Positions 31,961 to 55,387 of a stretch of 56,570 nt of DNA are shown piece after piece. Origin of the DNA: an uncultured Methanosarcinales archaeon. GTDB taxonomy: Archaea; Nanobdellota; Nanobdellia; Woesearchaeales; ARS49. Numbering within the stretch: position 1 is the first letter of the stretch; each line of letters opens with the position of its first letter. Under the pieces are notes generated by a model, which worked only from the letters and a program-made list of their open reading frames with translations, was not told where the DNA came from and ran no database searches. The translations under genes and the position numbers were made by a program. The DNA is taken from NCBI GenBank assembly GCA_964572035.1, contig CAZNDX010000005.1, forward strand, positions 1 through 56,570, given 5' to 3'.

Positions 31961-32422
31961 TTACTTGCTGAATGAGACAGGTATACTTTCTCTCAAAAAA
32001 GCCTCGCGTTTAAGCTCGTCAAGAGTGTAGTGTATGTCTTTTTTGGTTATTTTAAACTGATTCTCAAGTTTATCTATAAAGTCTTCAAGGGAGTGCATAT
32101 CTGAAAATATGCACTCCGCGAGAAGATTCCAGCCGTTGTTTATGCGAAATAGGCTGTTTACGTGGGGGTGGTGTTCTAGGTGGGAGAATAGTTTCGCTCT
32201 ATCGTCTTGTTCCACGGCAAGTAGCACATGAGCTCTTGCTATTTGTCCTAATTGGCCAAATGACAGTAGAGCGATTGGTTTTATGAGTTCATTTTTGATG
32301 TGTTTTTTTATTCGCTCGTGGAGTGTGCTGATTGGCAGCCCTATTTTCCTTGATAGTTCGGTTAATGGCATTCTGCCGTTTTGTCTTAAGTAGGATAAAA
32401 TTGTTATGTCCGTTTTTTTCAT
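31961..32422 (-). CDS. Lrp/AsnC family transcriptional regulator
   Basis: DITILSYLRQNGRMPLTELSRKIGLPISTLHERIKK wHTH plus RAM-like C-domain. SD GGAGGA. Confidence 0.93.
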   Translation of the reverse strand: MKKTDITILSYLRQNGRMPLTELSRKIGLPISTLHERIKKHIKNELIKPIALLSFGQLGQIARAHVLLAVEQDDRAKLFSHLEHHPHVNSLFRINNGWNLLAECIFSDMHSLEDFIDKLENQFKITKKDIHYTLDELKREAFLRESIPVSFSK

Positions 32423-32486
32423 GGTGCTCCTCCGCGTTTTTCAGCGCTGAGTGTAAGAATTCCAATTGTTTGCTTAGTTTTTGTTC

Positions 32487-34103
32487 TTAAGAAGTATAAG
32501 GTTTCTTCAAAAACTCTTTGAAATTTTTAACATATCCCGTTAGCCTTTCTAGACTTCCTTTAGACTCGCTTGAAGAAAATTCTCGTTTCAACTGCCAAAT
32601 GTTTAAAATAATCCTATCGAGTGCGTCTTCTCTTCGGGCAGCATATTTTTGTCGGCCTGGATCAGACCAAGCACTTACCAAACAAAACAAACGATGAATT
32701 AGCGAACTTTTATAGCGAGGCCAAAGATTTTCAGAGTTTATTTCAACTCCTACTTCTTTTGACTTTGTAATGTAATGTGAGATATATTCCTTTATTTTTT
32801 TATCATCAAAAAAGGTTTCATAGTCTAATAAATTCGCCAAATCAAATGTGAACGGCACTAGGTGAGTTGCCTCAAAATCTATGGCAGTTACTTTATCAGA
32901 AATAATCCAATTCTCAGGATGCGCATCCTTATTATAAACCCAATAATCGACCGAATTAATCAAATCTGCAACAAGAGAATAGTTGTCAAGAATTCCTTGA
33001 GCTATTTTCAAAGGCAGATCAAGATTTTTATTTTTCAGCTTCGACTCTAAGTTCTCAACAATTGATAGTTTTGGAAGGTCTTTGGAAATTTTAGAATGTA
33101 GTTCTGCAAGGGAAAGTAAAACTCTTTCAACAACAACATCGCAATTCAAACGTTCAGGCCATGAATTTCGTTTTTTTAACAACTGAAACGGATTATTCAA
33201 ATAATCATTTAAAGTTTCACCAGAGCAAAACTTCATTACCAAAACGTACCTTTCATTCAAAGGCTTTTCGGATAAATAAAGAATTTGAGGTAGTTCGGCA
33301 AATTTCAATTTACTTGTCAGAAATTGTATTGTTTCCTTTTCTCTTTCAAGTTGCTTTCTATCCGCACTCTCCTTGAAAAATAAAGTTTGCTCGAAAAACT
33401 TATTATCTTCTATTTTTCTTACAACATTTCTAGTTTCTCCTATTCTTTGCCAGCTTTCTTTTTGTTGGAGAATAACTAAAGCTTTCATCCACGCTTCTTC
33501 ACTATTTTGTTTTGTTGCATCCAATAACAAGGATTCAAGAACTGATTTTTCAGACATAAAACTTTTTTCATCCGATTTTTGACTCTCAAAATACAAATTC
33601 ATTAGCGGATTTCTAAAAAAAAGTTTTTCAAACAACAATAAAGGTGCTAATTTTATTTTAAAAAAAATAGAAGAATGATCTCCATATTGCTTCGAAAATT
33701 CCATTCCATCCCTTATTACTTCGAAACACTCATCAGATTTTCCTCTAGCCGCATATCCCAAAGCGGATAAATATAGAAAGAAAGGACTCTTTGATTTATT
33801 TCCTATTTTTCTAGTTAAATTAGGAAAAGGAGTGAAGAAATAGGCCAAAAATGGCGTTTTTTGTGTTTTTGAGGTTTCAATTTTGGCCTCTTCTAATTCA
33901 TTCTCTGAATTTATCACAACTGTTTTGTCAATCAAACTTTCCAAATCAGAATCATCATTAAGTTGAGTAGAGGATAAAAATAAATCACCTATTGTGCTCC
34001 TATCGGGCTGTAATTTGTACTGTGCCCTGAACACGTTCTTAAAAAAATGCTTAGTAAATGAAAAGAGCTTGCGTTTTTGTGATTCTTGAATTTCTTCCCC
34101 CAT
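32487..34103 (-). CDS. APH/choline-kinase-like phosphotransferase with an uncharacterised N-terminal half
   Basis: FFKE (Lys), LEREKE (alphaC Glu), LVMKFCSGETL hinge, NKDAHPENW catalytic loop, IDFE and FDLANLL. Low GC. Start moved to MGEEI (34103). Confidence 0.8.
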   Translation of the reverse strand: MGEEIQESQKRKLFSFTKHFFKNVFRAQYKLQPDRSTIGDLFLSSTQLNDDSDLESLIDKTVVINSENELEEAKIETSKTQKTPFLAYFFTPFPNLTRKIGNKSKSPFFLYLSALGYAARGKSDECFEVIRDGMEFSKQYGDHSSIFFKIKLAPLLLFEKLFFRNPLMNLYFESQKSDEKSFMSEKSVLESLLLDATKQNSEEAWMKALVILQQKESWQRIGETRNVVRKIEDNKFFEQTLFFKESADRKQLEREKETIQFLTSKLKFAELPQILYLSEKPLNERYVLVMKFCSGETLNDYLNNPFQLLKKRNSWPERLNCDVVVERVLLSLAELHSKISKDLPKLSIVENLESKLKNKNLDLPLKIAQGILDNYSLVADLINSVDYWVYNKDAHPENWIISDKVTAIDFEATHLVPFTFDLANLLDYETFFDDKKIKEYISHYITKSKEVGVEINSENLWPRYKSSLIHRLFCLVSAWSDPGRQKYAARREDALDRIILNIWQLKREFSSSESKGSLERLTGYVKNFKEFLKKPYTS

Positions 34104-34126
34104 CTTACTACTGCTCAGCAACAACA

Positions 34127-34134
34127 TTTATATA
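34127..34134. promoter_or_regulatory. Bidirectional TATA box between the kinase and PhoU genes
   Basis: TTTATATA lies 23 nt from ATG 34103 (minus) and 24 nt from ATG 34159 (plus). Confidence 0.65.
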
Positions 34135-34158
34135 TTAAAATATCGATTTTCGTCTATT

Positions 34159-35061
34159 ATGAAGCGTAAAGTCATTCAGTTGGCGGGGAAAACGTATGTT
34201 GTAACTCTGCCGACCGAGTGGGTTAAGGAGTGGGGCATTAAAAAAGGTGAAGAGGTCGACGTTAAGGAAGCCGGTCCAAGGCTCATCGTCAGCACTGGCC
34301 AAACTCGTGATTTAAACCGCGGCGAAGTTGATGTCAACGGTTCTTCCGAGCGTTCTTTGCGCTGGATTCTTTCTTCTTTGCACAAAAAAGGTTACGATGA
34401 GTTTGAATTGAAAACTGAAAATCCAGAACACTCAAAAATTGTTGAGGAATTGTTGAAAGATTTGTTTCTTGGTTTTGCAATAGTCAACAAAACTTCTAAA
34501 TCAATGACTGTGCGCGCAGTATCTAGAGAGCTTGATGAACAGTTATCCGCCGTTACTAGACGCGCCTTTCTAGTTACTGTTCAAATGGCTGATGATTTGG
34601 CGAGAATCGCGAAAAGTAAAGGTTTCAATGAGCTTGAGAATGTTATCGCTCAGGAAAAAACCAACAATCAATTAACCAACTTTGTTCAAAGAATCATCAA
34701 TAAGAAAGGTCTTGACGAACCTGTCAAGAACACTTTTTTGTACGCGATTATGTGGAATTTGGAGAAAGTCGCTGACCAATTCAAGTATGTTGGAGAGCAT
34801 ATGAAGTCAAAGAAAGATGTTGACAAAAATTCTCAAGTTTTGATTGAGCGTTCCGCGAAGTTGTTGAGAGAATATTATGAGTTGTTTTACAACTTCAATG
34901 TTAAGGAATTGAGCCGTTTGTCCGATGAGTTTAAAATTTTAAGAAAAGATGTTGAATCCGAGTTAGAAAAATCAAAAAATCCTGTTTTGTTAAGTCATCT
35001 TCACGCCGCGGTTCTAAAAATAGCTGACTTCTCTTCATCAACATTCGCCCTTAACGATTAA
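34159..35061 (+). CDS. Archaeal phosphate uptake regulator (AbrB/MazE N-domain plus PhoU-like domains)
   Basis: RKVIQLAGKTYVVTLPTEWVKEWGIKKGEEV (AbrB) and helical PhoU-like repeat ending NLEKVAD. Confidence 0.85.
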   Translation: MKRKVIQLAGKTYVVTLPTEWVKEWGIKKGEEVDVKEAGPRLIVSTGQTRDLNRGEVDVNGSSERSLRWILSSLHKKGYDEFELKTENPEHSKIVEELLKDLFLGFAIVNKTSKSMTVRAVSRELDEQLSAVTRRAFLVTVQMADDLARIAKSKGFNELENVIAQEKTNNQLTNFVQRIINKKGLDEPVKNTFLYAIMWNLEKVADQFKYVGEHMKSKKDVDKNSQVLIERSAKLLREYYELFYNFNVKELSRLSDEFKILRKDVESELEKSKNPVLLSHLHAAVLKIADFSSSTFALND

Positions 35062-35549
35062 CAAAGGTCAAGCGTCAGTGTCGCGGTTCTTGCTGTTTTG
35101 ACTATTTTCCACGTGCCCCGTTCTCTTTCGCCTGTGCATTGCCCGTTTGAGGCATTCAAAGTTCTTAGCACGTCATTGTCCGGTATGCTGAATTCGTATG
35201 TGTATCCCCAGTTTCCGAATGTTTGAGAGAGTGTTGTTGAAATTATGTTTTTCGCTTTTGTGCACGTGTTCGTTCCGTCAAAGCAGTTGTTAGCGCCGAC
35301 GTATTGTCCGCCAGTGTAGCTTGAGTCCATGCAGTTTTCAAGCAGTTGGCGGACGCTTTGCTTTCCGCATTCCGTTACTGTTGTTCCTGATAATGTGCTG
35401 AGGTATGTTCTTGCTTGTATGCTTTCTTTGGTGCTTATGGTTGGTTGTTGTTTTGTTAGTATGACCACGGCAAACAATAAGCCCAGCGCTAGAAGTATGA
35501 CAATAATAACCAATCCAAAAATCTCCATCTGCCCTTTACGCATAAACAT
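35058..35549 (-). CDS. Pilin-like protein (RKG|QMEIFGL)
   Basis: Class III leader, +1 Gln, hydrophobic helix, 6 Cys. Confidence 0.82.
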   Translation of the reverse strand: MFMRKGQMEIFGLVIIVILLALGLLFAVVILTKQQPTISTKESIQARTYLSTLSGTTVTECGKQSVRQLLENCMDSSYTGGQYVGANNCFDGTNTCTKAKNIISTTLSQTFGNWGYTYEFSIPDNDVLRTLNASNGQCTGERERGTWKIVKTARTATLTLDLC

Positions 35550-36012
35550 TCACCTGCATTATTCCAAAGTCGTACGCGTCGCGAAGGGGATTGTAAATTA
35601 GTATGGGATTTTTGTTTGTCAAGTTTTGGCTGTATTCGTTCGGTATATTGTTGTACAAAATTAGGGGCGTTCCCTGTGGATAAATTGGTTGTATTGTTAT
35701 TGTGCTGTATCCGAATTCTGGGAAATATTGCTCGAGTGTTTGTTGTTCTGTTAATAATTTTGAAAAGACGTTTAGTTTGAACGCGTCCACGCAGTTGTCT
35801 CGTTGTGTTACAAGGAATGAGCAGTCTAGTTCAGGTAAGTTCAGAGCCCTTAACGTCATTTGGTATGCGTATTGGTCTTGTGCTTCTCTTTTTTCTTTTT
35901 CTACCGCGCTTGTTTGTGATGCGAAATAAAATGAAATTCCTGCGAATAATAGTACAAAAAACACGACAAGAACTCCGATGGTTTCAAACATCTTTACTTG
36001 GCCCCTCATCAA
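35536..36012 (-). CDS. Pilin-like protein (MRG|QVKMFETI)
   Basis: Class III leader, +1 Gln, hydrophobic helix, ELDCS...CVD. ATGA overlap. Confidence 0.8.
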   Translation of the reverse strand: MMRGQVKMFETIGVLVVFFVLLFAGISFYFASQTSAVEKEKREAQDQYAYQMTLRALNLPELDCSFLVTQRDNCVDAFKLNVFSKLLTEQQTLEQYFPEFGYSTITIQPIYPQGTPLILYNNIPNEYSQNLTNKNPILIYNPLRDAYDFGIMQVNVYA

Positions 36013-37121
36013 AACACCTCTGGGCAGCTTTGTTGGAGGAGTTTTCTATTTTCGGTGCCTAATCTGTTTTTCAAAAGGTCTAATGAATTAACGTCAAGTT
36101 GTCCCAGCGATGAACTTGCCATTCTGTTTTGTTGGCATAACAAATCAATTATGCTTCCAGGTATCGCGTTTTGACAAATGTCAATGTTTGGGCTTTGGCA
36201 GATTGTTATTGGCGCTCCGAAGAGACATCCGCCTTCTGTTTCTGTGCAGAGTGTTTCTTTTTGTATTTCAGCCGCCCTGTACGCTAATACTTTTGATGTT
36301 GTTGCGAGTTTTCCTAGCGCGTTTTCTATTCCGCAGGTATACATTGCTCCGTCTTGTGCGAAGATTGCTGCGTATATGCTTGTCAGTCCGATGTGCCTTT
36401 GTATGTCGTTTTCTTGGAATGTGTTTTGTCTTGTTGTTTTTGACAGGAATGTTATTGTTGTTTCACCAACTTGTATCGCTTGTGCCGCGATTCTATTAAA
36501 GTCCGTAGGAACTGTTGGATTTGTTTGTATGAATATGAATTTGTGTTCAAAGTCTTCCGCTTCCAAATTGGATAATTCTCCTACTGTGACATTCTGATAA
36601 TTGAATTGTGTTATTGTCTCATTATTTTGAACAATTGAGGGAGGTATGTTTCTGGTTAGTTCAGAATGCAGTTTTACACTATTGCTTTTTTGCGGATCGT
36701 AAACCAAATAGTATTTGTGCTCTGGGTTTGTTAAAAACAAAAAGTTTGTAACTCTGTATGGCTGTTCCCATTCCATGCTCCAGATGAAAGTATCCTGCCC
36801 TCTAATTAGTTCAGGAGAAAATATCGGCAAATTAAATTGTCTTTGGGCGTTGTCTATTTGGAATGCGCAGTCGCATCCTTGTGTGCAGCTGAATCCTATT
36901 CCTTGTCTTGGTGTTGGTATGTGCTGGGCTGTTCCGCCTTTTAGTTGGCTTTTCGCGAGGATGTCGTCAACTTGTGAAAGCACTGTATATTGCAGTCTTT
37001 CCTGCCCTACTGCTCGTTGTTTTAGGGCGAATGAAAAGAAGAATCCCAGAATGAGAGCGCCGGCAATTAATATAAATATCCAGTGAAATTGCATTTCCAC
37101 CGCTTTTTTGTTTATTGCCAT
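36009..37121 (-). CDS. Large pilin-like protein (KKA|VEMQFHWIF)
   Basis: Class III leader, hydrophobic helix, 330-aa soluble domain with Cys clusters. Confidence 0.78.
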   Translation of the reverse strand: MAINKKAVEMQFHWIFILIAGALILGFFFSFALKQRAVGQERLQYTVLSQVDDILAKSQLKGGTAQHIPTPRQGIGFSCTQGCDCAFQIDNAQRQFNLPIFSPELIRGQDTFIWSMEWEQPYRVTNFLFLTNPEHKYYLVYDPQKSNSVKLHSELTRNIPPSIVQNNETITQFNYQNVTVGELSNLEAEDFEHKFIFIQTNPTVPTDFNRIAAQAIQVGETTITFLSKTTRQNTFQENDIQRHIGLTSIYAAIFAQDGAMYTCGIENALGKLATTSKVLAYRAAEIQKETLCTETEGGCLFGAPITICQSPNIDICQNAIPGSIIDLLCQQNRMASSSLGQLDVNSLDLLKNRLGTENRKLLQQSCPEVF

Positions 37122-37609
37122 GCGCTGATTTTTGCTTTTCTTCCTGTGCCTTCAAGTTTTAGCGTGACGCCGTTGTTGTTTGGAACGCAGACGTATCCTC
37201 CGTCTACTGTTATTTCAGTCATGGAGAGTCCTGGTGTCCTTGGCACTGTGAATACGTTTTCGCTTCCTGCTTTGCAGGCGTCTATTCCCCATAGTACTTT
37301 TGTGTCTTGGTTTGGTTCAGGTAAATTTGCATCTGTTAAGCTTCCGCAGGTTTCGTAATCAAAGAAGCATATTGCGTCATATTCCGCGGGCAGTTTCAAA
37401 ATTAGTTTGCGAATGCTTCCTTGGCTTCTTTTAATGCCCTCCACCGCGACGTCTAGGTCTGTTTTTATATCTACCATTACAACTTCCTGCTGTCGTTCCA
37501 AAAAATAGCTGACTGCTTTGTAGCCGTAGGAAATAATTAGTACGAAAATTAGTCCCGCGAGTATGAATATGAATACTTGTCCTATCATTTCTGCTTTATT
37601 TTTTGCCAT
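37112..37609 (-). CDS. Pilin-like protein (NKA|EMIGQVFIF)
   Basis: Class III leader, hydrophobic helix, 4 Cys. Confidence 0.78.
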   Translation of the reverse strand: MAKNKAEMIGQVFIFILAGLIFVLIISYGYKAVSYFLERQQEVVMVDIKTDLDVAVEGIKRSQGSIRKLILKLPAEYDAICFFDYETCGSLTDANLPEPNQDTKVLWGIDACKAGSENVFTVPRTPGLSMTEITVDGGYVCVPNNNGVTLKLEGTGRKAKISAWQ

Positions 37610-40600
37610 GCCCGTATCGTTTTAGTTCTTGTTCGAATTCTTTTTTGTGTTCTTCGTAATATTCTGCGGTAATTTTGAGTTTTCTGAACAATTCTTCTAT
37701 TTCTTTTTTAGTTAGGGCTCCTTCATGCAATAACTTAAGTTTTTCAAGGAGTTCTTTTCTTTCTTGCCTGCCTGTTTCCTCAAGTATTGCGTGTAATCTT
37801 TCTATTGGGTCTTTTGATGTTTCTTTTTTGGCGAGTTTTCGCAATCTTTCGAGCGCCGCTTCGAATTTTTTGGGTGGTATTGGTTTTTTCTTGATTTGTT
37901 TTTCAAGGTCTATCCAGTCTTTTTCCTCGAGGTCTTCTTTTTTAGCGAAGGTTCTTAGTTTGTCTAATTCTTCTGTTTTTGTGTATTCTGGTTGTTCTTT
38001 TCTTTGCGCTTTTGTTTCTTCTTTTGGTTTTGGCAAGTGTTGGTAGAGTAAGTATGCTCCTATTCCAACTCCTGCTATGGCGAACAATATCATTAATACT
38101 TTGAGGGCTCCGAGTATTATGCTTGGCGGGTGGCTTTTTGGATTGAGCGGGTCTGTTCCTTCTTCAACTTCTTTTCCGTCGTTCCATCTGTCTTTGTCCG
38201 TGTCTCGCAGGGCAGGGTTTGTGCGGAGGTCGTATTCTTGTTTGTTTGTTAGTCCGTCTTTGTCAAAGTCTGTTCCTTCGGCCGCTTCCGCGCAGTCTAT
38301 GCATCCGAAGTGGTCTAGTCTCCATTTGTCGTCTATTGTGTCTCCGAGGCTGAAGGTTTGTGATAGTCCGCATCCTTTTTCATCAACTTGTTCCCCTACT
38401 GGTGTTCCGAGGCACGCGTCGAATGGGTCGTATATTCCGTCGTAGTCTTCGTCGCCTACTGGTTTATCTGTGCAAATGTTGAATTGTATGTCGCACTTTA
38501 GTCCGTCCGCGCAGTCTTCGTTGACTTCACAGGCGCTCTTTGCCGGGCATAGAGTTGGGCACGCTCTTCCGCAATCCACTCCTGCTTCTCCGACATCGAG
38601 TTGTCCGTTGCTGCAGTGGCTTGCGTCTTCGCAAACTTTGCTGTCGTATCCGCAATATCCTGTTTCACAGTCGGAGTGTAATATGCATTCTTGTCCTTGC
38701 GTGCAGGCGCTGCAGGTTGTTCCTCCGCAGTCTACGTCTGTTTCGAATCCGTTTTTAACTTCGTCATCGCACACCGCTAGTGTGCATACGTCGTTTACAC
38801 AGCTGTTTGTTTCGCAGTCGCCGTCAACAACGCACGCTTTTCCTATCGCGCAGGATGAGCATTCGCTTCCGCCGCAGTCTTCGTCTGTTTCGTTTCCGTC
38901 AACATCCCCGTTAACGCAGGCGGCCGGTTCAAGTGTTACGTCTATTGTAACTCCGTCGCTTTCCATCTCCTCGCTGATGAGTCCTACTTTGTTTACCGCC
39001 TTTACTTTGAAAATGTACGTGCGCCCGTTGACCAAATTGAGTGGTCCGCCGTCGTTTCGTGTTCTTATGTAAGTGTAATTTCCGTCTGTTACGTTGCTGA
39101 CTAGATTACTGACAATCAATTGTCTGTTGTTTCTGTCTTGTATTGTAACAAGGTAATGGTCTATTGATGACTCTAAATCGTTTCCTTTGAATGCTGCTCG
39201 TAGTTTTGTTTTGCTCCACGATAGTTCTGGGTCTTCAAATGGTCCGTCGTCGAGCACGTATTCCATTGTTGGTGGTGTTGTATCTACCAGTACTGGTATT
39301 GTTATTGGTCCGACTTTTTCTTGTGTGCTTGGCTGCACGCAGGATACGAAGTATGTGTGTTCTCCTTCTCCTGCGACCTGTATTGGTTGCCATTGAACGT
39401 AATCTGCCGAGCAAGACCCCATGCACGTGCTTTGGTCGTCTTCTTGTGTTCCAAAGTAGCAGAATGTTCTTTTGTTTGACGCGACTCCTATTGTTACGTT
39501 TGTCGTGCTGAATCCTCTTGGTGTTACGCTTGTTATGTTGAGGTCCAAGCTGAGGTCCACAACGACGTCAAATTCAGCGGGCTCAGAGACTAGTTGGTTT
39601 GTCGCTTTGCAGGATATGTAGTATCTGTATGTTCTTTCTTCTGTTACGTTGATTTGTGCGCTGTGTGTTGTTTTTGGTACTAAATCATATCCCGGGAACT
39701 GTCCTGTCATTTGTGAGAATTGTGATGTTGTTGTGCTGTATTTGCAGAATCCTGGTTTGTCAAGTTCTACTTTCATTGTTGTGACGTACAGGTCTTTGTC
39801 CGGGAGATATTTCTCGGCAATGATTGGTGGCTCTGCTATTACGCGTTTGATTACGGGCGGTTCCGTATCGAGTGTTATGGTGAATGTTTTTTGGTTTATT
39901 CCCCAGTTTGTTCTGCAGTACGCGTGCAGTTGCGCGCTTTCTACTCCGCTTGGTATTGTTAGTTGTTGTGATGTGTGTTTGTTTCCTGCGTCGGTGAATT
40001 TTTGGAATAGGTCGAAATCGCTTGCGTTTGGCGCTGTTGGCGTATTGTATATGTATGCGCATTCCGCTGGCAGTTCTGTTTCTATTTCGGCGATGAATTG
40101 TGAGGTGTTTGCAGAGCCGAATGGAGGCACGGTCATTCGCATGTCTGGGGCTCTTGTTGCCATGTAGAATTGTGTTCTTGCTTCTATTGGCAAATTGTTG
40201 TAGCCTCGTGCGTAAACGTGTATTGCGTTTGTTCCTCCGCTTATGTTTCCTACGCGCGCTTTGTAGTTTATTTTATCCGTGCTGGTCAGGACTGGTTTTA
40301 TGCTTCGTGGTGTTTCAAGTATTGAGAAGTCTAAGTATCTCATTGATATTACGTCAGCTACATCGAGTTGTACAGGTTTGCTGAAAGTTAGATTGACATC
40401 AATCTGAGAAGTGTTTAGTATCGCGTTCGCGGGTTGTATTGTTACTGTTGGCGCGACATTGTCTACGATTAGCGTGTATGTTGGTCCAGGTGGTGTGAAG
40501 AATATGTTTTTGTCATTTTTGCCGTTGAAACCGAATGTATACGTTCCTAATGTTAGAGTTGGAGCGGCAAATGTGTGGCTTAGTTGCATTCCTGATGTTT

Positions 40601-42626
40601 GTTGCGTGAATGATGGGTTTCCTGGCCCCTGCAATTGAAGGAATGTTATTTCTGTTGGCACGTCAAAAGTTACAGTTATTACCGGTGAGAAACTGCTTGT
40701 GTATATTGTGTTGTTTAGCGCTGCCCCGTCTGTTATTGTCAAGTTCAATATTTGTGGTCCGTTGCACGCTGCGCAGGCGAAGAATGTTACTGTTTTCACA
40801 ACTTCAATGTTGTTGTGGTTGTCTCTGCTGTAATAGTATAGCGTGTTTGTTCCTTCTGGCAGTGTTGTAAGTGTTGTTTGTCCTTGTTTTAGCTGTCTGT
40901 TGCTGATTATTAGTTCGTTTGCGCTGACTTGTATTGGGTATGTTTTTGCGTTGTTGCAGTTTGTTGTGGTGTTTTGTACGCAGAGGTATGTTGTGAAGTT
41001 TGGCTGTCCTGCGTAGTCTTGTGTTGCTCCGCTTGTTGTTTGTTGGTCGAATATTTTGATGATGAGTTTGTCTATTTTTCCTGCGATTCCTGTTGGTATT
41101 ATTGTGGTTTCTGGTGGGAAATAATCGCGCTCGCAGGTGTAATCTCCCGCTGGGCAGTCTTTGAATGGGTCTCCTGTTGTTCCGTCGGCGTTTTTGACGC
41201 ATCCTGCGGTGTCTGACCATTGGCATACTCCGATTCCGCATTGGTCTGAGCTGGTTACAACGACTGAATTGTCCGTTCCAAGTTGCACTCCTCCTGAAGG
41301 TGAGCCACATTGCATTTGTGTGTAATCTGCGCACGATACTTGTTCGCAGGTTTTCGCTTGTTTCAAGTTTCTGTCAAAGAAGCAGGGGTTGTCTTGTGTG
41401 CTTAGCGCTTCGCTTTTTTGTTCTGTGCACGCGTCCCATATTGTGCTGGTTACTTGTGTTGTTTCTACTCCTGTTGTTCCGTTTTTGGCGCAGAATATGC
41501 AGTTGCTTGCCTGTTGGTCGATGCATACTCCTATCCCCAAATCAGCAAACACGCTGTTCCATTGGCAGTCTCCTGCGTTGCAATTGTCTCGTTGGCACGC
41601 TCCTTGTGTTTTGTAGTCGGCGCACGCCATTTGTTGTTTGCACGCGTAGCATTTGTTTGTTGGTCCTAGGCTTTTGTCAAAGAAGCAATAAGAGTTTGTT
41701 TCGCAGGTTGAGGATGATGAGTATAGTCCGAATGGGTCGCCTGTATCGCATGCTGTGGGGCTTACGCATTTTGGTCCTTGTTCATCGGCGACGCAGTATT
41801 CTCCTGTTGTGCACGCGACTCCTGCGCTTGTTAGCTTGTTTTGCGCGTTGCATTGGTATGCCTTATTCAACTTGCCTGCGAATACGCTGTTTACTGTTCC
41901 GGTGAATTGCGTGTTGAATCCGCTGCCGCTTATTCCACCGTATCCAAACGTTGTCAGATACGTTCGATATTTTTCATAATAACTTGAGCTGATGCAGAAC
42001 GCGTTGCTTGATTGTTGGTAGCATTCTATGTCTCCAGCGTTTCCTGTTGCTGTTGTGTTTGCGCTGTTTCCTGCAAGTTGGTAGTATGCTGATATCGCGT
42101 AAGTGTAGTCGACGTTGAATTCGAGGTTTGCGTCGTTGTCAATGAATTGCCCTGTTGGTTGTCCTTGTGTTATTGTTTGTGTTGGCGTGCAGGATGTTCC
42201 TTTGCATCGGTATATTGTGACGTAGTCTGGTGTGCATGCGGTTGTATAAGTTAGCAGGAGTGATTTTTGCGCGCGAACTGGTGAAACGGAAAGTGTTGGT
42301 GCCGGCGCGTAATTGGGGCTTCCGCATCCTGATATTACCGCGCAGTCTTGGGCGCAGTTTGTTGCTGTTTCTCCTGTTTCGCAGATGTTGTTTCCGCAAA
42401 CCGGCTGGCTTGGCTGATATCCTTGCGCTCCGCAGAATTGTGAGCAGGTTTGTGATGAGTTTGTTGGGACGCCAAATATGTATGTTGCTGGACAGCTTGA
42501 TTGTGGCATGAAGCTTCCGTTTTTCGTGACTGGGTCGCAGCAGCATCCGACGGATTGCGCGCTGACTATTGCTGAAAGCGCCAGTGTTAATGCGATGCAT
42601 ATTCCTATTGTTATTGCGGTGCGCAT
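37596..42626 (-). CDS. Giant Cys-rich single-pass surface protein (1676 aa), putative adhesin
   Basis: Sec signal (IVSA|Q), Cys-rich modules, several Ig/FN3-like repeats (DTEPP, DTTPP, DNVAP), three E(T/A)(D/G)xDCG repeats, Ca-binding DxDxDG repeats, C-terminal TM and charged cytoplasmic tail. Confidence 0.85.
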   Translation of the reverse strand: MRTAITIGICIALTLALSAIVSAQSVGCCCDPVTKNGSFMPQSSCPATYIFGVPTNSSQTCSQFCGAQGYQPSQPVCGNNICETGETATNCAQDCAVISGCGSPNYAPAPTLSVSPVRAQKSLLLTYTTACTPDYVTIYRCKGTSCTPTQTITQGQPTGQFIDNDANLEFNVDYTYAISAYYQLAGNSANTTATGNAGDIECYQQSSNAFCISSSYYEKYRTYLTTFGYGGISGSGFNTQFTGTVNSVFAGKLNKAYQCNAQNKLTSAGVACTTGEYCVADEQGPKCVSPTACDTGDPFGLYSSSSTCETNSYCFFDKSLGPTNKCYACKQQMACADYKTQGACQRDNCNAGDCQWNSVFADLGIGVCIDQQASNCIFCAKNGTTGVETTQVTSTIWDACTEQKSEALSTQDNPCFFDRNLKQAKTCEQVSCADYTQMQCGSPSGGVQLGTDNSVVVTSSDQCGIGVCQWSDTAGCVKNADGTTGDPFKDCPAGDYTCERDYFPPETTIIPTGIAGKIDKLIIKIFDQQTTSGATQDYAGQPNFTTYLCVQNTTTNCNNAKTYPIQVSANELIISNRQLKQGQTTLTTLPEGTNTLYYYSRDNHNNIEVVKTVTFFACAACNGPQILNLTITDGAALNNTIYTSSFSPVITVTFDVPTEITFLQLQGPGNPSFTQQTSGMQLSHTFAAPTLTLGTYTFGFNGKNDKNIFFTPPGPTYTLIVDNVAPTVTIQPANAILNTSQIDVNLTFSKPVQLDVADVISMRYLDFSILETPRSIKPVLTSTDKINYKARVGNISGGTNAIHVYARGYNNLPIEARTQFYMATRAPDMRMTVPPFGSANTSQFIAEIETELPAECAYIYNTPTAPNASDFDLFQKFTDAGNKHTSQQLTIPSGVESAQLHAYCRTNWGINQKTFTITLDTEPPVIKRVIAEPPIIAEKYLPDKDLYVTTMKVELDKPGFCKYSTTTSQFSQMTGQFPGYDLVPKTTHSAQINVTEERTYRYYISCKATNQLVSEPAEFDVVVDLSLDLNITSVTPRGFSTTNVTIGVASNKRTFCYFGTQEDDQSTCMGSCSADYVQWQPIQVAGEGEHTYFVSCVQPSTQEKVGPITIPVLVDTTPPTMEYVLDDGPFEDPELSWSKTKLRAAFKGNDLESSIDHYLVTIQDRNNRQLIVSNLVSNVTDGNYTYIRTRNDGGPLNLVNGRTYIFKVKAVNKVGLISEEMESDGVTIDVTLEPAACVNGDVDGNETDEDCGGSECSSCAIGKACVVDGDCETNSCVNDVCTLAVCDDEVKNGFETDVDCGGTTCSACTQGQECILHSDCETGYCGYDSKVCEDASHCSNGQLDVGEAGVDCGRACPTLCPAKSACEVNEDCADGLKCDIQFNICTDKPVGDEDYDGIYDPFDACLGTPVGEQVDEKGCGLSQTFSLGDTIDDKWRLDHFGCIDCAEAAEGTDFDKDGLTNKQEYDLRTNPALRDTDKDRWNDGKEVEEGTDPLNPKSHPPSIILGALKVLMILFAIAGVGIGAYLLYQHLPKPKEETKAQRKEQPEYTKTEELDKLRTFAKKEDLEEKDWIDLEKQIKKKPIPPKKFEAALERLRKLAKKETSKDPIERLHAILEETGRQERKELLEKLKLLHEGALTKKEIEELFRKLKITAEYYEEHKKEFEQELKRYGHGKK

Positions 42627-43789
42627 AGTGTTACGGTTAGTGTGATTTGTTGGTAGTCCGCGCTTTTTGCTGGATGCGTGTCGTGCGCGTAAATTTGGAC
42701 TATTTTTTGTGGTATATCGTTTGCGCTTATTTCAATGGCTTGCGCGTCGTTTATGCTGAATGTTGTTGTGTCGTTGTCTGGATCGTTTGCTTTGAGTTGT
42801 ATTGTTGTGAAGGATTCGCACGGCTGTTGCGCCGATAGCTGGTTTCCGCTTATTCGTAGCGTTGTTGTTCCGCTTGGCGGAACGTAAATTGTGTCTGCGT
42901 TTTCTATAAACCATAGAGCTGGCGCTCTGTTTTGTCGTTTTATCGTGAAAGAATAAGGTATTCCTTGGACTGTGCTTGTTGTGTCTGTTAAGATTATGTT
43001 GCTTCCTTTTTCTGTTGTTTTTGTTTCAATTACAAATGGCAGTTGTGTTGTTGGTTCGTATGTTATGTCTGTTACGTCTGCGTCGGCGTACTCTTTTGCG
43101 GTGTAATACATTGTTCCTAATCTCACTGGCAGTCTTGCGCTGAACTTTTCGAATTGTGCTGTGTTTCCGTCCAAGTTTGTTGCTTTAATGTTCCAATTTA
43201 GCTCAATTGTTAGTGCTTGTTCTGTTTTCAATTGCTCGATATTTTGCGCAAAAATTAGAGTAACTGCTGGTTCTCCTGCAATTATTTCGTATAAATCGAA
43301 TTGCGCGAAGTTTGTGCATTCCGGTAGTTTGGTTTCAATGTAGTGTTCTAAATTCTCGCTGACTGATGTTTGACCTTGTGAAGGATTTAATGGCGGCAAG
43401 TTATTGATGCCATAGTATCCTTCAAATGTTGTTTCTCCTCCTCTAAATGGATAGGTTTGGAATGGATACTCTGGCGGTGTGCTGTAAAAGAATGTTCCTA
43501 CGTTTCCGACTGGCGGAGTGATTGTGATGCTTGTTTCTTGGAGGCTATCAGATGTGAGTCCTCCTTGGTTTTCAAAGATGTGTCCTCCCTGCTTTCCGAG
43601 TAAAATTAATCCTTCTTCTGTTGTTTGTCTTAAGCAGGATGTCACTGTTTCTTCTATTTCTTCTGCACTGATGGTTTTCGCTGTTGCCAGTTCTTTTTTT
43701 ACCGTTCCTGCGACGTATATCGCGATTCCTAAAGAAACAACTATCAATAATCCGATGATGATGAAAATAGTTATTTGCCCGCGTTTCAT
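42611..43789 (-). CDS. Large pilin-like protein (KRG|QITIFIIIG)
   Basis: Class III leader, +1 Gln, hydrophobic helix, and a C-terminal Ig/cadherin-like segment (NRAP...ANDPDNDTTTF). Confidence 0.8.
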   Translation of the reverse strand: MKRGQITIFIIIGLLIVVSLGIAIYVAGTVKKELATAKTISAEEIEETVTSCLRQTTEEGLILLGKQGGHIFENQGGLTSDSLQETSITITPPVGNVGTFFYSTPPEYPFQTYPFRGGETTFEGYYGINNLPPLNPSQGQTSVSENLEHYIETKLPECTNFAQFDLYEIIAGEPAVTLIFAQNIEQLKTEQALTIELNWNIKATNLDGNTAQFEKFSARLPVRLGTMYYTAKEYADADVTDITYEPTTQLPFVIETKTTEKGSNIILTDTTSTVQGIPYSFTIKRQNRAPALWFIENADTIYVPPSGTTTLRISGNQLSAQQPCESFTTIQLKANDPDNDTTTFSINDAQAIEISANDIPQKIVQIYAHDTHPAKSADYQQITLTVTLCAPQ

Positions 43790-44892
43790 GGAATCACCCG
43801 CAGGCGTGTTGTTTGGTTCCAGTTTTGTACGAGTCCTGATGGTCCTGTTTGGAAGTATTGTGATACGGTCAGAATTTCATTTGTTGTTTGTTTGCAGTTT
43901 GCGTTTCCTCCGTATGGTACGAATAGATTGTTGCATATGTTTGAGAACAATGGAATGTTGGTTATGTGCCATCCTGCGAATTCTTTTTGCGCTGCTCCCC
44001 ATGGTCCTACTTTGAATGTGTAGAATTGTTTGTTTCCATTTTTGGCGACGTAAACTTGTTTATAGTTTGGCGTGTTATTGAATAGTTCGTAATTAAACAG
44101 CGAGCTTGTTGCGTCGTGTACTTCTGTAAATACGTAGTTGTTGAGTTGGTTGTATGACGCGCTTAGAATATTTTTGGCCGTGGCTGTTGCTTGAGGTATT
44201 GTTGTGACAACTGGTCCGTTGATTATGCTTTGCGTGTCGTGGTTGTACCATATGTTGTTTCCGCATAGGTCGTAGTCGTTGTCAAAGTTTTTGGCGCTGT
44301 TGCAGTATGACGTTGGCTGATTTAATGCTTTTAGTATGCTTTTGTCCGCTCCATCAACCGGGTAGTTCAGGCTTGTTCCTACGATTGTGTTTGTGCCGTA
44401 ATGAAGTACGCATACGTTGTTTATGCACGGGCGTGATACTGTTGTGCTCATTGGGCAGCTTCCGATTACGAGTGGAGCGACTTGTCCGTATGTCGTTGTG
44501 TATTGATATCTGTTTAGAACTTCCTGCGGTTTGTCGCAATACAAGGCAAAGTCTGAAGGAGTTTGCGATAACCCAATTGTCAGCATTGTTTCTGCGAGCA
44601 GTTTTGTTCGCGATGCCCATTTTCCTAGGTCGCAGTAATCGTCAAGCAAATATTGGCCGCTCATTATGCATTTTGGTTTGTCGTTGTTTGTTTGTCCTGT
44701 CCAATATCTGTCTGGGAAATTGTCATTGGCAGGATTGCAGCTTGGACAGATGAGGCATTGGTTCGCTGTCGCGCAAAAATTTCCTTGTTCTGGAATAAAA
44801 TTTGGAGTGTGTCTTACGTCTACTTGTACCCAGCTTGCCGCGTAGGCTGAAGTTGCTAAAAGTAGGAGGAGGAAAATTGTTTTTATGGGCAT
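43786..44892 (-). CDS. Cys-rich secreted protein (~368 aa)
   Basis: Sec signal MPIKTIFLLLLLATSAYA. Start moved from 45009, which lies inside the upstream gene. Confidence 0.78.
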   Translation of the reverse strand: MPIKTIFLLLLLATSAYAASWVQVDVRHTPNFIPEQGNFCATANQCLICPSCNPANDNFPDRYWTGQTNNDKPKCIMSGQYLLDDYCDLGKWASRTKLLAETMLTIGLSQTPSDFALYCDKPQEVLNRYQYTTTYGQVAPLVIGSCPMSTTVSRPCINNVCVLHYGTNTIVGTSLNYPVDGADKSILKALNQPTSYCNSAKNFDNDYDLCGNNIWYNHDTQSIINGPVVTTIPQATATAKNILSASYNQLNNYVFTEVHDATSSLFNYELFNNTPNYKQVYVAKNGNKQFYTFKVGPWGAAQKEFAGWHITNIPLFSNICNNLFVPYGGNANCKQTTNEILTVSQYFQTGPSGLVQNWNQTTRLRVIP

Positions 44893-46733
44893 CTGTATCC
44901 TTTTCCTCCAAAGCTTACGAAGTGTCCTGACGCTCTGCATTGGTTGCCGTCCCAGCACATGTTTGTTGGACAGCATCCAGTTTGAATTTGTGAGGATGTT
45001 GGCATCCATCCTGTTTGTTCAACTACGCTTGTCTGCGTAAATTCTACGAATTGCCAGGTTCCTTGGGGTGTGCAGATTGCGTTCTTGTCCGCGCCAGTTG
45101 GTTTTACGTTTAGTAATGGCGTTCCGCAAAATCCTCTTTCGTTAATTTGAACTCCTGGGAAGTCTGCTATTGTTGTTGTTCCTGTGTATCCTATTGTTCT
45201 TTGTTCATTGCAGAAATAATATGCTCCGTTGTGAATTAGTATATCTTGTTCTATTCCTGTTACGCTTCCTTGTGATATGACTTGGTTGTTTACGCATACC
45301 CCTGTTCCGCTTGGATCATTATAATTTTTGAGTGGGTCGTCTGGTTCTCCGCAGCATTTTGTTCCTGTCCAGCTAAATCCCGCCGCTGTGCATCCTAATT
45401 CATCTCCATCTAATGATTTTGTGAGCGCTCCTGTGCTTTTGCAATAATATGCTTCATTGTTTATGTCGACTCGCGTTCCTGTTGTTTTGGTGTATTGTGA
45501 TGGCGAGTATGGACTGCTTCCTCCGCATTCTCGTAATTGTGGTCCTTCGCACCAATAGGTGTGTCCCGCGATGTCTGTTGTTCCCTGTAATTGATTGACC
45601 GTTATTCCTGCTGTGTTTTGCGTGTTTCCGCACGTCAGGAATCCTGTTGTTGTCGCGACGACTTGCGTCATTGCTCCGCAACTTGTAAAGTCAGTAATAA
45701 CTCCTGGGTCTAGTTGTCCTGCCCATACCCAATTGGTTCCGCTTTTTCCGCAGATGGCGTTCATTACTCTATTGCCTAATCCGGCGACTGTTCCATAGTA
45801 TTTGCAGTCGCTTGGAGGGCTTTCAGCGTTTGGATTTACGTATGCGTCTCCGCAGCAGACTCCGTTGTACCAGTCGCTTCCCAGGTTCGCGCAAGTTTGC
45901 TCGTGTTGGTAGTCGCAGATTGGGTTTCCTAAGCTGTCAACTGATGTTGAGGGGAATGAGTTTATGCAGGCGATTACTTGTTCTGGAAATGAGGGGTTGT
46001 ATGTGATTTGTGTTTCGCCTGATGATGGGTCATATGATTGGTCTGGTGCGAAGTATGCTGCGACTTTATTGTCGCTGCTTGTTACTTTCAAATCTCCAAG
46101 ATACCCTTGTAGCGAAACAATTCCTGTCAGAGGACCAAGGGTTACCGGTCCTGTTTTGTTTCTGAAAAAGTTGAACGGTTTAACTGCGCTTCCGCTTATT
46201 CCTCCATCCCATCTAACTGTTCTTATTCTGAATGATGGTAGGTTGTTTGTTCCGTGGGTGTAATAATTGTAAGTTATCGATTGAACTGATTTCGCGGGAA
46301 TTACTGGAAAACTAAGTTGTGTGTATGTTCTTTTTTGCGGAACTGGTGAGCCGACCATTTCAAGGAATGTTTTGCATTGTGTCGCGACTATTGGTTCGTT
46401 GTCAAATTGAACGCATAGTTGGTAAGTTCCGCATTGCTCGGGTCCTGGAATCATTGTGCCTGTTCCAGATCCGTCATCCACCATTGGCCTGTAACATTGG
46501 CCTATATTGTCTATTGTTATGTTCAGTTGGGAAATTGTTATTGGTGTTGAGAACAGGTTATTGTCCGTTCGAATTAGTGGGCTTGTCCCGCCCATTGTGT
46601 ATTGAGAGGCTCCTGATGTTGGATAGTTATAGCTTCCGCTTCCGCCAAAAACAGTTATCGTGACTTGTTGCGCGAGAGCGATTCCGCTAAGAATTACTGA
46701 TAGTAATGCCAATACTAGTAATAACCGTTTCAT
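44883..46733 (-). CDS. Cys-rich secreted protein (616 aa), first gene of the 46733-35058 gene string
   Basis: Sec signal MKRLLLVLALLSVILSGIALA, repeated CCG(D/E) and CxxxGxxW modules. SD AGGGG and ATTTAAAA box at ~46770-46777. Confidence 0.82.
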   Translation of the reverse strand: MKRLLLVLALLSVILSGIALAQQVTITVFGGSGSYNYPTSGASQYTMGGTSPLIRTDNNLFSTPITISQLNITIDNIGQCYRPMVDDGSGTGTMIPGPEQCGTYQLCVQFDNEPIVATQCKTFLEMVGSPVPQKRTYTQLSFPVIPAKSVQSITYNYYTHGTNNLPSFRIRTVRWDGGISGSAVKPFNFFRNKTGPVTLGPLTGIVSLQGYLGDLKVTSSDNKVAAYFAPDQSYDPSSGETQITYNPSFPEQVIACINSFPSTSVDSLGNPICDYQHEQTCANLGSDWYNGVCCGDAYVNPNAESPPSDCKYYGTVAGLGNRVMNAICGKSGTNWVWAGQLDPGVITDFTSCGAMTQVVATTTGFLTCGNTQNTAGITVNQLQGTTDIAGHTYWCEGPQLRECGGSSPYSPSQYTKTTGTRVDINNEAYYCKSTGALTKSLDGDELGCTAAGFSWTGTKCCGEPDDPLKNYNDPSGTGVCVNNQVISQGSVTGIEQDILIHNGAYYFCNEQRTIGYTGTTTIADFPGVQINERGFCGTPLLNVKPTGADKNAICTPQGTWQFVEFTQTSVVEQTGWMPTSSQIQTGCCPTNMCWDGNQCRASGHFVSFGGKGYRCP

Positions 46734-54229: not shown

Positions 54230-55387
54230 ATGAGACGTAAAGCGCAAGCGGCAAGTGGAGCGGCAACTTTAATCGGCATTATACTTGTGCTTTTCATTTT
54301 TTACATTCTATTTTTGCCTCCTGAGGAAAGAAAGAGTTTGCTTGATGAGGGAACCTTAACTGCTCCAGGAGATAGCGCGATTGGGAACAAATTGCTTGAT
54401 GTCGCTCCTGGTCGTCTGACTTTTACTGATAAAAAAGTGATTGATCACAGTATTCCGAATATTTATCTTGAGTCCGCGCGTGAGAGTGTGATTTTGGCGC
54501 AGGAGAATCCATTTACGATTTACAAGGGTTTGTTTGGCGAGCAAAAGAAAAGAATGGTGTTTAGCGTTGATAATTTGAACAATCTTGAGAGTGTCATGCT
54601 TGGCTTTTCAGCTCCTTATAGAAAGGGAATTCTTACAATCACTTTGAACGGAATGCCTGTTTTTGAGAACGCTGTTCCTGTTCAGAATGTTCCGCCTATT
54701 GTTCTTCCTAAGAGTTTGATTCGTGAAGCTAATGAGCTTGAATTTTCAGTTCAGGGTTCTTGGTTTCAGAGGAAAAAATTCGAACTTTCAGATATCAAAG
54801 TTGTTGGTGAACTGACTGACGCTGCGAGACAGCGCGCCGAGAGCAGTTTCACTATTTCGCCGACTGAGTTTGACAATTTGGAATCTGTCTTCCTTGACTT
54901 TTTCCCTATTTGTGACCAGTCGCAAGTTGGAATTATGACTGTTGGATTGAATGGAAAATTGTTGTTCGCCGCGCCTCCTGCGTGCGATAGTTTGAACAGA
55001 CAGGAAGTTTTCAAGGAAGATTTGAATGAAGGCAAAAACACAATTTATTTCCAAATCGACAGAGGTTCCTATAGAATTGAGCAGGTTCGCGTAAGATCAA
55101 CTTTGAAGCCAGTTCAGTCTTACATACAATACTTTGATGTCAAACAAAGTCTTTACAATGACGTTCTTGACAAGAAGCGCAAGGTTATTTTGAAGATTGA
55201 GTTTGTGAATGATGGGCTTTCAAAGCGCGCGGATGTAAGCGTTAATGGCAAGCTTCTTTCGTTGGACCAAAAGACAAATGTGTTTGAGCGTGATGTTTCG
55301 ACCGCCATGCGAGAGGGCAATAACTATCTTGAAATCCGTCCGCTGTCTGAGATGAATATCGTGCGTGTTGAAGCGCGCGTTGAGTAA
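54230..55387 (+). CDS. Class III signal peptide protein (RKA|QAASGAA) with three internal beta-sandwich-like repeats
   Basis: +1 Gln leader, hydrophobic helix, and three (L/V)NG...NxLxF-type units. SD AGGTGA. Confidence 0.78.
   Translation: MRRKAQAASGAATLIGIILVLFIFYILFLPPEERKSLLDEGTLTAPGDSAIGNKLLDVAPGRLTFTDKKVIDHSIPNIYLESARESVILAQENPFTIYKGLFGEQKKRMVFSVDNLNNLESVMLGFSAPYRKGILTITLNGMPVFENAVPVQNVPPIVLPKSLIREANELEFSVQGSWFQRKKFELSDIKVVGELTDAARQRAESSFTISPTEFDNLESVFLDFFPICDQSQVGIMTVGLNGKLLFAAPPACDSLNRQEVFKEDLNEGKNTIYFQIDRGSYRIEQVRVRSTLKPVQSYIQYFDVKQSLYNDVLDKKRKVILKIEFVNDGLSKRADVSVNGKLLSLDQKTNVFERDVSTAMREGNNYLEIRPLSEMNIVRVEARVE

Follow-up and report, generated by a model that had tools for sequence, protein, structure and literature searches.

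A giant membrane-anchored, cysteine-rich surface protein encoded in a conserved pilin-like operon of Woesearchaeota

The stretch of DNA analysed here, 56,570 nucleotides of contig CAZNDX010000005.1 (assembly GCA_964572035.1) and referred to below as the window, comes from an uncultured archaeon deposited under Methanosarcinales and placed by GTDB in the Woesearchaeales (ARS49). On its minus strand, at 37596-42626, it carries an open reading frame (ORF) with an ATG start that encodes a giant protein of 1676 aa. The protein, a disulfide-rich fibril, is exported by the Sec route, anchored at its C-terminus and equipped with a cytoplasmic domain that is under selection; its gene lies in a vertically inherited operon together with those of five prepilin-type proteins. 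We lean towards the view that it serves as the large stalk or adhesin subunit, anchored in the membrane, of a pilin-based surface apparatus that is specific to Woesearchaeota and encoded by a fixed eight-gene operon. Few uncultured DPANN archaea are as widespread as the Woesearchaeota, whose genomes measure about 1 Mb and which presumably depend on other cells; to our knowledge nothing is known of how they make cell contact. An initial annotation of the sequence had proposed a modular, Cys-rich, Sec-exported and C-terminally anchored surface protein tied to pilin-like genes, and this description is supported by the present analysis: the ORF is a genuine gene, its anatomy is confirmed, and all the motifs that had been named in the protein were found where they had been placed.

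The giant protein contains two hydrophobic segments according to hydropathy, namely the N-terminal signal (residues 1-24) and a helix at ~1501-1528, the one transmembrane (TM) helix expected from the initial annotation. Since the signal is of the Sec type and the single C-terminal TM helix has its basic residues on the tail side, ~1,475 residues are predicted to lie outside the cell and 148 inside. Of the 83 cysteines, one is in the signal and 82 are in the ectodomain, with none in the TM helix or the tail, and every one of the 19 N-X-S/T sequons is in the ectodomain. From the tip inward, the outer part consists of a disulfide-rich head, eight beta-sandwiches, three 8-Cys modules and an Asp-rich TSP3-type segment at the membrane, which, if extended, would make a fibril of several tens of nanometres. 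Two AlphaFold2 (AF2) models were built from input alignments of 24 rows each, taken from orthologous loci; the N-terminal model covers residues 25-1130 with a mean predicted local distance difference test score (pLDDT) of 78.5, and the C-terminal model covers 1116-1676 with a mean of 84.1. Loci L018 and L014 were excluded from the alignments; compared with the tblastn match, their orthologue is either split or stops prematurely, which could be a frameshift or an assembly error. The parts of the protein are the following:

42555-42626, minus strand: Sec-type signal peptide, residues 1-24, with a hydrophobic N-terminus
42327-42554, minus strand: N-terminal Cys module with GCCCDP and CGNNICETGETATNCAQDC, residues 25-100
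42027-42326, minus strand: first beta-sandwich, residues 101-200
41127-42026, minus strand: Cys-rich head with alpha/beta and disulfide-rich parts (AF2), residues 201-500, 28 Cys
39282-41126, minus strand: six Ig-like beta-sandwiches, residues 501-1115
38922-39281, minus strand: fibronectin type III (FN3) domain, residues 1116-1235, from a sub-threshold Pfam fn3 match, a PDB profile and Foldseek
38463-38921, minus strand: three homologous ~50-aa 8-Cys repeats, residues 1236-1388
38127-38462, minus strand: Asp-rich TSP3-type segment (weak TSP3_bac match) and juxtamembrane motif, residues 1389-1500
38043-38126, minus strand: single TM helix, residues ~1501-1528
37980-38042, minus strand: variable cytoplasmic linker, residues 1529-1549 (21 aa)
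37599-37979, minus strand: conserved cytoplasmic helical domain, residues 1550-1676

The N-terminus of the giant protein, MRTAITIGICIALTLALSAIVSAQ, is a Sec-type signal without the [KR][GA] motif of class III (type IV pilin) signals; it ends AQ/S, and both its hydrophobicity and the AQ conserved ahead of the mature end in orthologues bear out the Sec signal originally proposed. The mature protein starts, as had been noted, with GCCCDP (residues 27-32), of which G27, C28-30, D31 and P32 are invariant or nearly so across orthologues. In the AF2 model this motif is borne by a beta-hairpin, followed by a part of low confidence, and the Cys module quoted in the initial annotation is present at residues 77-95 as CGNNICETGETATNCAQDC, with the family consensus CGDGICQxxETAxxCPxDC. 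No Pfam family matches the module at 25-100. The Cys-rich region of ~400 aa described at first proves to be composite, made up of this Cys module, a beta-sandwich with strands at ~111-196 (pLDDT 84-92) and the alpha/beta and Cys-rich head at 201-500. Most of the 28 cysteines of the head are invariant or nearly so, and AF2 is confident over 201-290 (alpha/beta at ~210-290), poor over ~290-398 and moderately confident over the Cys-rich part at 400-500.

The run of Ig/FN3-like domains that follows is recovered by AF2 as six beta-sandwiches at ~505-1115 (pLDDT mostly 80-92) and an FN3 domain at 1116-1235. For the latter, Pfam fn3 (PF00041) matches residues 1142-1215 with E 8.5e-5 and 23.1 bits against a cut-off of 25, a PDB sequence profile matches titin FN3 at 4e-8, and the fold itself is seen by Foldseek (4wtw, E 1e-5, TMt 0.76). 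Big_13 (PF19077) exceeds its cut-off in longer family members. The three repeats of the initial annotation, bounded at 1236-1284, 1285-1336 and 1337-1388, turned out to be homologous to one another, each containing 8 Cys: a hidden Markov model (HMM) of a single repeat retrieves the other two with i-E 1e-9 to 1.5e-3, and AF2 renders them as small disulfide modules (pLDDT 76-91). They belong to no Pfam family, and the same is true of those in the repeat-rich family member P0078. In the last ectodomain segment, where Ca-binding-type repeats had been reported, a stretch resembling degenerate TSP3 repeats is present; the copy in the window reaches 19.3 bits for TSP3_bac (PF18884), below the cut-off of 25, its Asp/Gly positions being partly replaced (DTDKDRWNDGKE). 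PF18884 has precomputed matches in several orthologues and passes the cut-off in the longer variants P0078 (35.2 bits) and P0122 (31.3 bits). Next to the membrane, the motif GTDPxxPxSHPPS (also given as GTDPxDPxSHPPS) is conserved, NCBIfam Amuc_1099 matches weakly at 1474-1503, and the AF2 helix spanning the membrane extends over 1503-1529, with the basic residues C-terminal of it.

When Pfam and NCBIfam were run on the whole giant protein and on nine segments of it, only sub-threshold matches were returned (fn3, TSP3_bac, OmpL47-barrel and Amuc_1099), and PDB sequence profiles of both halves and the tail gave titin FN3 and noise only. Against the PDB, Foldseek matched the C-terminal model to FN3 domains and the N-terminal model to generic tandem Ig/FN3 strings (A2ML1, mastigoneme, titin, GhpA, contactins, SbsC) with TM-scores of ~0.1. 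The 50 best Foldseek matches listed per model include neither an enzyme nor a propeller, and neither a class II fusogen nor a lattice protein of an S-layer; no S-layer or enzyme family was matched in Pfam, NCBIfam, PDB profiles or Foldseek; a whole-length match of this kind, which would have spoken against the initial annotation, was thus not found. That annotation had also likened the Cys repeats to those of myxobacteria and CPR (candidate phyla radiation) bacteria. Neither Pfam nor NCBIfam supports this kinship: residues 25-100 and 1236-1388 gave no match to the Myxococcus-type Cys repeat (DUF4215 / TIGR02232) in Pfam up to E 10 or NCBIfam up to E 0.1, in searches whose HMMER filters may hide very weak matches, and no Pfam match to the repeats of P0078 was obtained up to E 0.01. 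We found no paper on this protein family.

The cytoplasmic tail comprises 148 aa (1529-1676), about half of them K, R, D or E. A tail of ~125 aa had been put forward at first, a length that holds for the conserved helical part (1550-1676, ~127 aa) and falls short of the tail as a whole. In the AF2 model a disordered stretch (1531-1547; pLDDT <50 in the linker) precedes eight short helices within 1550-1674 (pLDDT 65-84). By region, identity to 23 orthologues is 0.17 at 1529-1552, 0.53 at 1553-1600 and 0.46 at 1601-1676, and for the ectodomain segments against the same 23 it is 0.31-0.51. L1611, G1636, L1650 and H1660 are invariant in the tail, and P1607, T1653, Y1656 and Y1657 are invariant or nearly so. 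A comparison with a relative of 83% identity gave a ratio of non-synonymous to synonymous substitution rates (dN/dS) of 0.09 for the head (25-500), 0.10 for the Ig run (501-1235), 0.22 for the Cys repeats and TSP3 segment (1236-1500), 1.04 for the linker (1529-1549) and 0.13 for the tail domain (1550-1676). The tail is accordingly conserved, predicted to be folded and not of low complexity, and the possibility that it might be a non-conserved low-complexity extension, on which the initial annotation would have failed, does not apply.

The distribution of the tail domain is narrow. It has no match in Pfam or among PDB sequence profiles, and no recognisable signalling domain was seen in it by either. 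A profile of the tail matched 48 of 1.84 billion representative proteins, most of them orthologue-sized proteins or fragments, and the match is C-terminal in all except a low-scoring repetitive one inside a 1,482-aa protein. The genome under study holds a single copy. Within its GTDB family the profile is present in 44 of 77 genomes, which represent 16 of the 29 genera, and it matches each of them once, save for one genome with a second, weak match. Elsewhere in the order it occurs in three genomes from a single other family, and in a 401-genome sample of the phylum it matched no genome of other orders. These data mark the tail as a genuine cytoplasmic domain that is under selection, clade-specific and not universal to the operon. 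A role as a shared sorting or anchor module was rejected, as the domain has one copy in its own genome and is found only in the giant-protein family.

A whole-length search recovered 22 family members with 32-96% identity, mostly of 1,565-1,702 aa; two of them are shorter (1,061 and 1,509 aa) and cover about two thirds of the query. When the head (25-500) was used instead, 63 proteins were found at 32-96% identity, in most of which it was matched nearly full-length; these proteins are mostly ~1,400-1,850 aa long and reach 2,600 aa. All members with a named source are from Candidatus Woesearchaeota / Nanoarchaeia, the rest being from metagenomes; overall, the identity of orthologues spans 31-96%. 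The length of the stalk varies in the family: P0078 (2,692 aa) has, by eye, around two dozen 8-Cys repeats instead of three, P0122 is a longer variant of 2,600 aa, and P0050 (1,176 aa) contains an inserted array of CGDGxxNxGExCDG-type repeats, with no Pfam match over any part of it at E up to 0.01. Against relatives of 96%, 83% and 80% identity the substitutions are evenly spread and the linker alone stands out; a hypervariable host-range region was sought in these comparisons and by dN/dS, and none was found. The giant protein is ~42-50% identical to its better-conserved orthologues, the RNase P subunit of the same loci being ~42-58% identical, and 26-37% identical in the most divergent loci.

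A scan at one genome per species identified 34 further orthologous loci, and wherever their flanks are readable the order of the eight genes is kept: A (616), B (407), C (392), D (1676), E (165), F (370), G (158) and H (163), with lengths in aa and D being the giant protein. An RNase P p30 gene lies upstream of the operon in these loci, and an AbrB-PhoU gene converges on it downstream. In the window, the neighbours of the giant gene are:

44883-46733, minus strand: gene A, 616 aa, Sec signal, Cys-rich, at the start of the operon upstream of C
43786-44892 (likely true start), minus strand: gene B, Sec signal, Cys-rich, between A and C
42611-43789, minus strand: gene C, 392 aa, pilin-like, class III motif, overlapping the start of the giant gene by 16 nt
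37112-37609, minus strand: gene E, pilin-like, class III motif, overlapping the stop of the giant gene by 14 nt
36009-37121, minus strand: gene F, pilin-like, class III motif
35536-36012, minus strand: gene G, pilin-like, class III motif
35058-35549, minus strand: gene H, pilin-like, class III motif

The pilin-like genes each have a characteristic class III N-terminus, which is [KR][GA]Q[IV]T[IV]F[IL]IIG, conserved in orthologues, for C, [KR][GA]Q[IM]IGQ[IV]F for E, [KR][GA][FI]E[LM]QFHWIF for F, [KR][GAS]Q[IV]KMFET for G and [KR][GA]Q[MT]EI[FM]GL for H, the individual motifs of E, F, G and H being kept across up to 28 loci. The coupling to pilin-like genes on both sides that had been reported thus stands as regards class III neighbours and overlaps of 16 and 14 nt, from which translational coupling would follow. 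A and B precede C in nearly all loci for which the upstream flank was recovered. The alignment of orthologues places the start of B at an internal Met (MPIKTIF..., ~44892), giving a 10-nt overlap with A, and in divergent genomes (L019, L020, L021, L027, L028, L033 and L034) A and B are fused into one ORF of ~670-1,270 aa, from which it can be argued that the two act together. The G+C content over 38001-46000, that is, over the operon, is 0.44-0.47, compared with ~0.34-0.42 elsewhere in the window, and the AT skew there is strongly negative. This is probably due to amino-acid composition (Cys, Gly, Thr, Pro) and not to foreign origin, the latter being disfavoured by the vertical synteny. Downstream of the operon, an APH-like phosphotransferase gene (32487-34127, scoring just above the Pfam cut-off), an Lrp regulator gene and a second pilin block recur in 12 loci, the block being inverted in two of them; the APH-like kinase, Lrp and AbrB-PhoU genes (31961-35061 in the window) are not a local insertion, as they recur in related loci. 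A further 385-aa ORF outside both pilin blocks, at 54230-55387 on the plus strand, shows MRRKAQAASGAATLIGIILVLFIF as its class III-like N-terminus and weakly matches a galactose-binding-like domain.

The genome (906 kb in 14 contigs, estimated to be 100% complete) has the minimal machinery to process and assemble the five prepilin-type proteins: one A24 prepilin peptidase (C2:110221-111075), one T2SSE-type ATPase (C10:20331-22583) and, as a platform candidate, the adjoining 711-aa gene (C10:22580-24715) with a weak T2SSF match of 17 bits. At 750 aa the ATPase is unusually long, being extended at its N-terminus by a stretch that contains Cys (CGEYE...NCESC); these features and the weak T2SSF match may explain why type IV filaments of DPANN are under-detected by standard models. 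The housekeeping genes of the window are archaeal (RNase P p30, RadA, RPA, aRF1 and several aminoacyl-tRNA synthetases), and TadA/TadC-type genes were found neither in the window nor within 10 kb of the 34 orthologues; ATPase, platform and peptidase genes are all absent from these loci (582 kb). Six signal-bearing ORFs in the genome exceed 1,600 aa, and at least four others than the giant gene exceed 1,700 aa; modules of the giant protein shared with A, B or other giant ORFs were searched for up to E 0.01, with none found. Gene C has two paralogues, C2:174446-176608 (720 aa) and C2:182011-184068 (685 aa), to which it is 26-27% identical over ~250 aa (E 1e-11 to 2e-13). Each of them overlaps the start of a giant Sec/Cys-rich ORF, one of 1,050 aa (31 Cys) and the other of 2,280 aa (50 Cys), the paralogous cassettes spanning C2:174446-179757 and C2:182011-190907. 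From these overlaps a pairing of pilin-like protein and giant protein can be argued, and the presence of the cassette, a C-type pilin-like gene followed by a giant protein, in three copies in a 0.9-Mb genome suggests that each giant protein has its own dedicated pilin-like partner.

Taken together, these observations can be accommodated in a scheme in which the A24 peptidase would process the five pilin-like proteins, the single motor would assemble them into a short filament or a membrane-proximal complex, the giant protein would act with this complex in cell-to-cell, probably host, contact, and its conserved cytoplasmic domain would dock an intracellular partner. The giant protein would then act much as a large non-pilin protein does alongside minor pilins in the type IV pili of bacteria, the difference being that it remains in its own membrane. 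Attachment to a host, as proposed by the initial annotation, is inferred, and that the tail couples to a motor or to a signalling partner, which that annotation also raised, is pure inference. Several points weigh against seeing the giant protein as an anchored stalk or adhesin of a pilin-based apparatus. No motor gene is linked to the operon, and AF2 confidence is poor over residues 290-398 of the head. The protein evolves slowly and evenly, at roughly the pace of the RNase P subunit, as host-range adhesins do not usually do; this fits a structural part better and speaks against a host-range determinant that adapts rapidly. With a C-terminal TM helix and a 148-aa cytoplasmic domain it cannot sit at a pilus tip, so that the analogy with PilY1 is only partial. 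Furthermore, the most divergent orthologues (L016, L021 and L027) retain the same ectodomain plan with a divergent or truncated tail, and the tail profile has no match in 33 of the 77 family genomes, which argues that the tail is not essential to the operon everywhere.

Slow evolution would also agree with an S-layer-like envelope protein, a C-terminally anchored canopy or spacer of the Woesearchaeota cell wall whose pilin-like neighbours would be N-terminally anchored, bindosome-like partners that form no filament. The signal peptide, tandem Ig-like domains, single C-terminal TM helix and 19 ectodomain sequons agree with such a protein, as do its single copy and vertical inheritance beside housekeeping genes; SbsC is among the generic Foldseek matches, and large, Cys-containing, C-terminally anchored proteins of archaeal type IV pilus (T4P) loci have been labelled 'S-layer-like' (Makarova, Koonin and Albers 2016; PMC4858521). 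We nevertheless hold this to be unlikely. No S-layer family was matched in Pfam or NCBIfam, the Foldseek matches are generic Ig strings with TM-scores of ~0.1, the genome has at least four other signal-bearing ORFs above 1,700 aa, known S-layer anchors have no conserved folded cytoplasmic domain, and a rod of about eight domains plus repeats would exceed the typical length of an S-layer stalk. A release of the ectodomain, as in a PilY1-like tip adhesin held in the membrane until assembly, cut near SHPPS and then carried outward by the five minor pilins as a complex at the tip, appears very improbable. It would account for a large Sec-exported protein with Ca-type motifs inside a minor-pilin-like operon, as in fimU-pilVWXY1Y2E, and for the conserved juxtamembrane GTDPxDPxSHPPS, and the context does resemble that of PilY1/PilC, with five class III genes flanking the giant gene in readable loci and motor genes more than 10 kb away. 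However, PilY1/PilC domains gave no Pfam or NCBIfam match, and the AF2 models consist of beta-sandwiches and small Cys modules, with neither a beta-propeller nor a vWA domain; moreover, if the anchor were discarded, there would be no point in the purifying selection that acts on the tail. Release by an archaeosortase was likewise set aside: 148 aa follow the TM helix instead of the few basic residues of a PGF-CTERM/archaeosortase substrate, and no exosortase or archaeosortase was detected in the genome by a weak search that gave a signal in only 1 of 14 control genomes.

Two further explanations assign the tail a more active part. The giant protein could be an outside-in signalling receptor with an integrin-like logic, in which the ectodomain senses contact and relays it through the TM helix to the cytoplasmic domain; an enzyme of the cytoplasm, for example the APH-like kinase whose gene lies 3.5 kb downstream, would read or modify that domain. 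The conserved tail, with H1660 invariant and T1653, Y1656 and Y1657 nearly so, is in line with this, and the kinase gene keeps its downstream place in 12 loci and lies on the same contig as the tail, ~3.5-8 kb away, in at least 16 family genomes. In a tally over the 77 genomes of the GTDB family, tail and kinase were both present in 25 and both absent in 27; 19 genomes, including all seven of one genus, have the tail without the kinase, and six have the kinase without the tail. The co-occurrence is therefore loose, as well as confounded by phylogeny, and the kinase was rejected as an obligate partner of the tail: it is syntenic in many genomes, and co-inheritance is not strict. As the tail also has no recognisable signalling domain, we consider a receptor improbable. 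A bolder proposal makes the giant protein the transmembrane coupler of a lineage-specific organelle built from type IV filament parts. Where the cell touches its host, the stalk, stiffened by disulfides and Ca, would hold a complex of the five dedicated pilin-like subunits with the two secreted Cys-rich proteins, the cytoplasmic domain would dock directly on the sole filament ATPase/platform or on another intracellular machine, and contact outside would gate assembly, retraction or transfer inside. This coupler is an unlikely account; if true, it would be an archaeal counterpart of integrin-type two-way coupling.

The locus, a conserved and vertically inherited set of pilin-like genes with a giant anchored protein, has been overlooked by standard models, and its cytoplasmic domain and 8-Cys repeat are represented in neither Pfam nor the PDB. 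New at least for this genome are the difference in dN/dS that sets the linker apart from the tail domain, the restriction of the tail to a clade, the fusion of A with B, the three copies of the cassette and the loose link to the kinase. Should the tail have a defined partner, it would provide a molecular handle on the contact between archaeal episymbionts and their hosts, as well as targets for antibodies, labelling in cryo-electron tomography and pull-downs in enrichment cultures.

Among known systems, strings of beta-sandwiches similar to that of the giant protein are found in GhpA, the grappling hook protein of Aureispira, in the mastigoneme protein and in SbsC, which gave the best Foldseek matches (E 1e-14 to 1e-9); these matches are generic, at 8-12% identity, and neither the Cys-rich head nor the 8-Cys repeats nor the tail recurs in these proteins. 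In the crenarchaeal archaellum, the monotopic membrane protein ArlX (FlaX) provides a scaffold for the motor with its helical part in the cytoplasm; it has no large ectodomain. It may be compared with the giant protein in that both belong to systems related to type IV filaments and join a single TM helix to a charged, helical region inside the cell, although no sequence similarity was detected for the tail in Pfam or PDB profiles. The PilY1 operon of Pseudomonas aeruginosa is fimU-pilVWXY1Y2E, and the corresponding protein is ComZ or PilC in other bacteria. As in that operon, the giant protein is a large Sec-exported non-pilin with Ca-binding-type motifs, encoded amid about five distinct minor-pilin-like genes with the motor elsewhere; unlike PilY1, the giant protein has no beta-propeller or vWA domain, carries a C-terminal TM helix and a cytoplasmic domain, and is related to it neither in sequence nor in fold. 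PilY-like adhesins have been noted in archaeal loci (PMC13705601; PMC4858521), and type IV filament systems are reported to be scarce in DPANN (PMC13705601). A comparable description is that of the large, C-terminally TM-anchored, Cys-containing 'S-layer-like' proteins or adhesins in archaeal T4P loci, e.g., arCOG05471, by Makarova, Koonin and Albers (2016; PMC4858521), in a survey that does not mention DPANN or Woesearchaeota and in which the function of such proteins is a prediction only. Compared by description only, the giant protein agrees with them in size, signal peptide, single C-terminal TM helix, conserved Cys and a pilin locus with co-encoded putative minor pilins, whereas the operon of Woesearchaeota never lies beside ATPase/platform genes, and its giant protein is distinguished by a folded cytoplasmic domain of ~127 aa and an 8-Cys repeat of its own.

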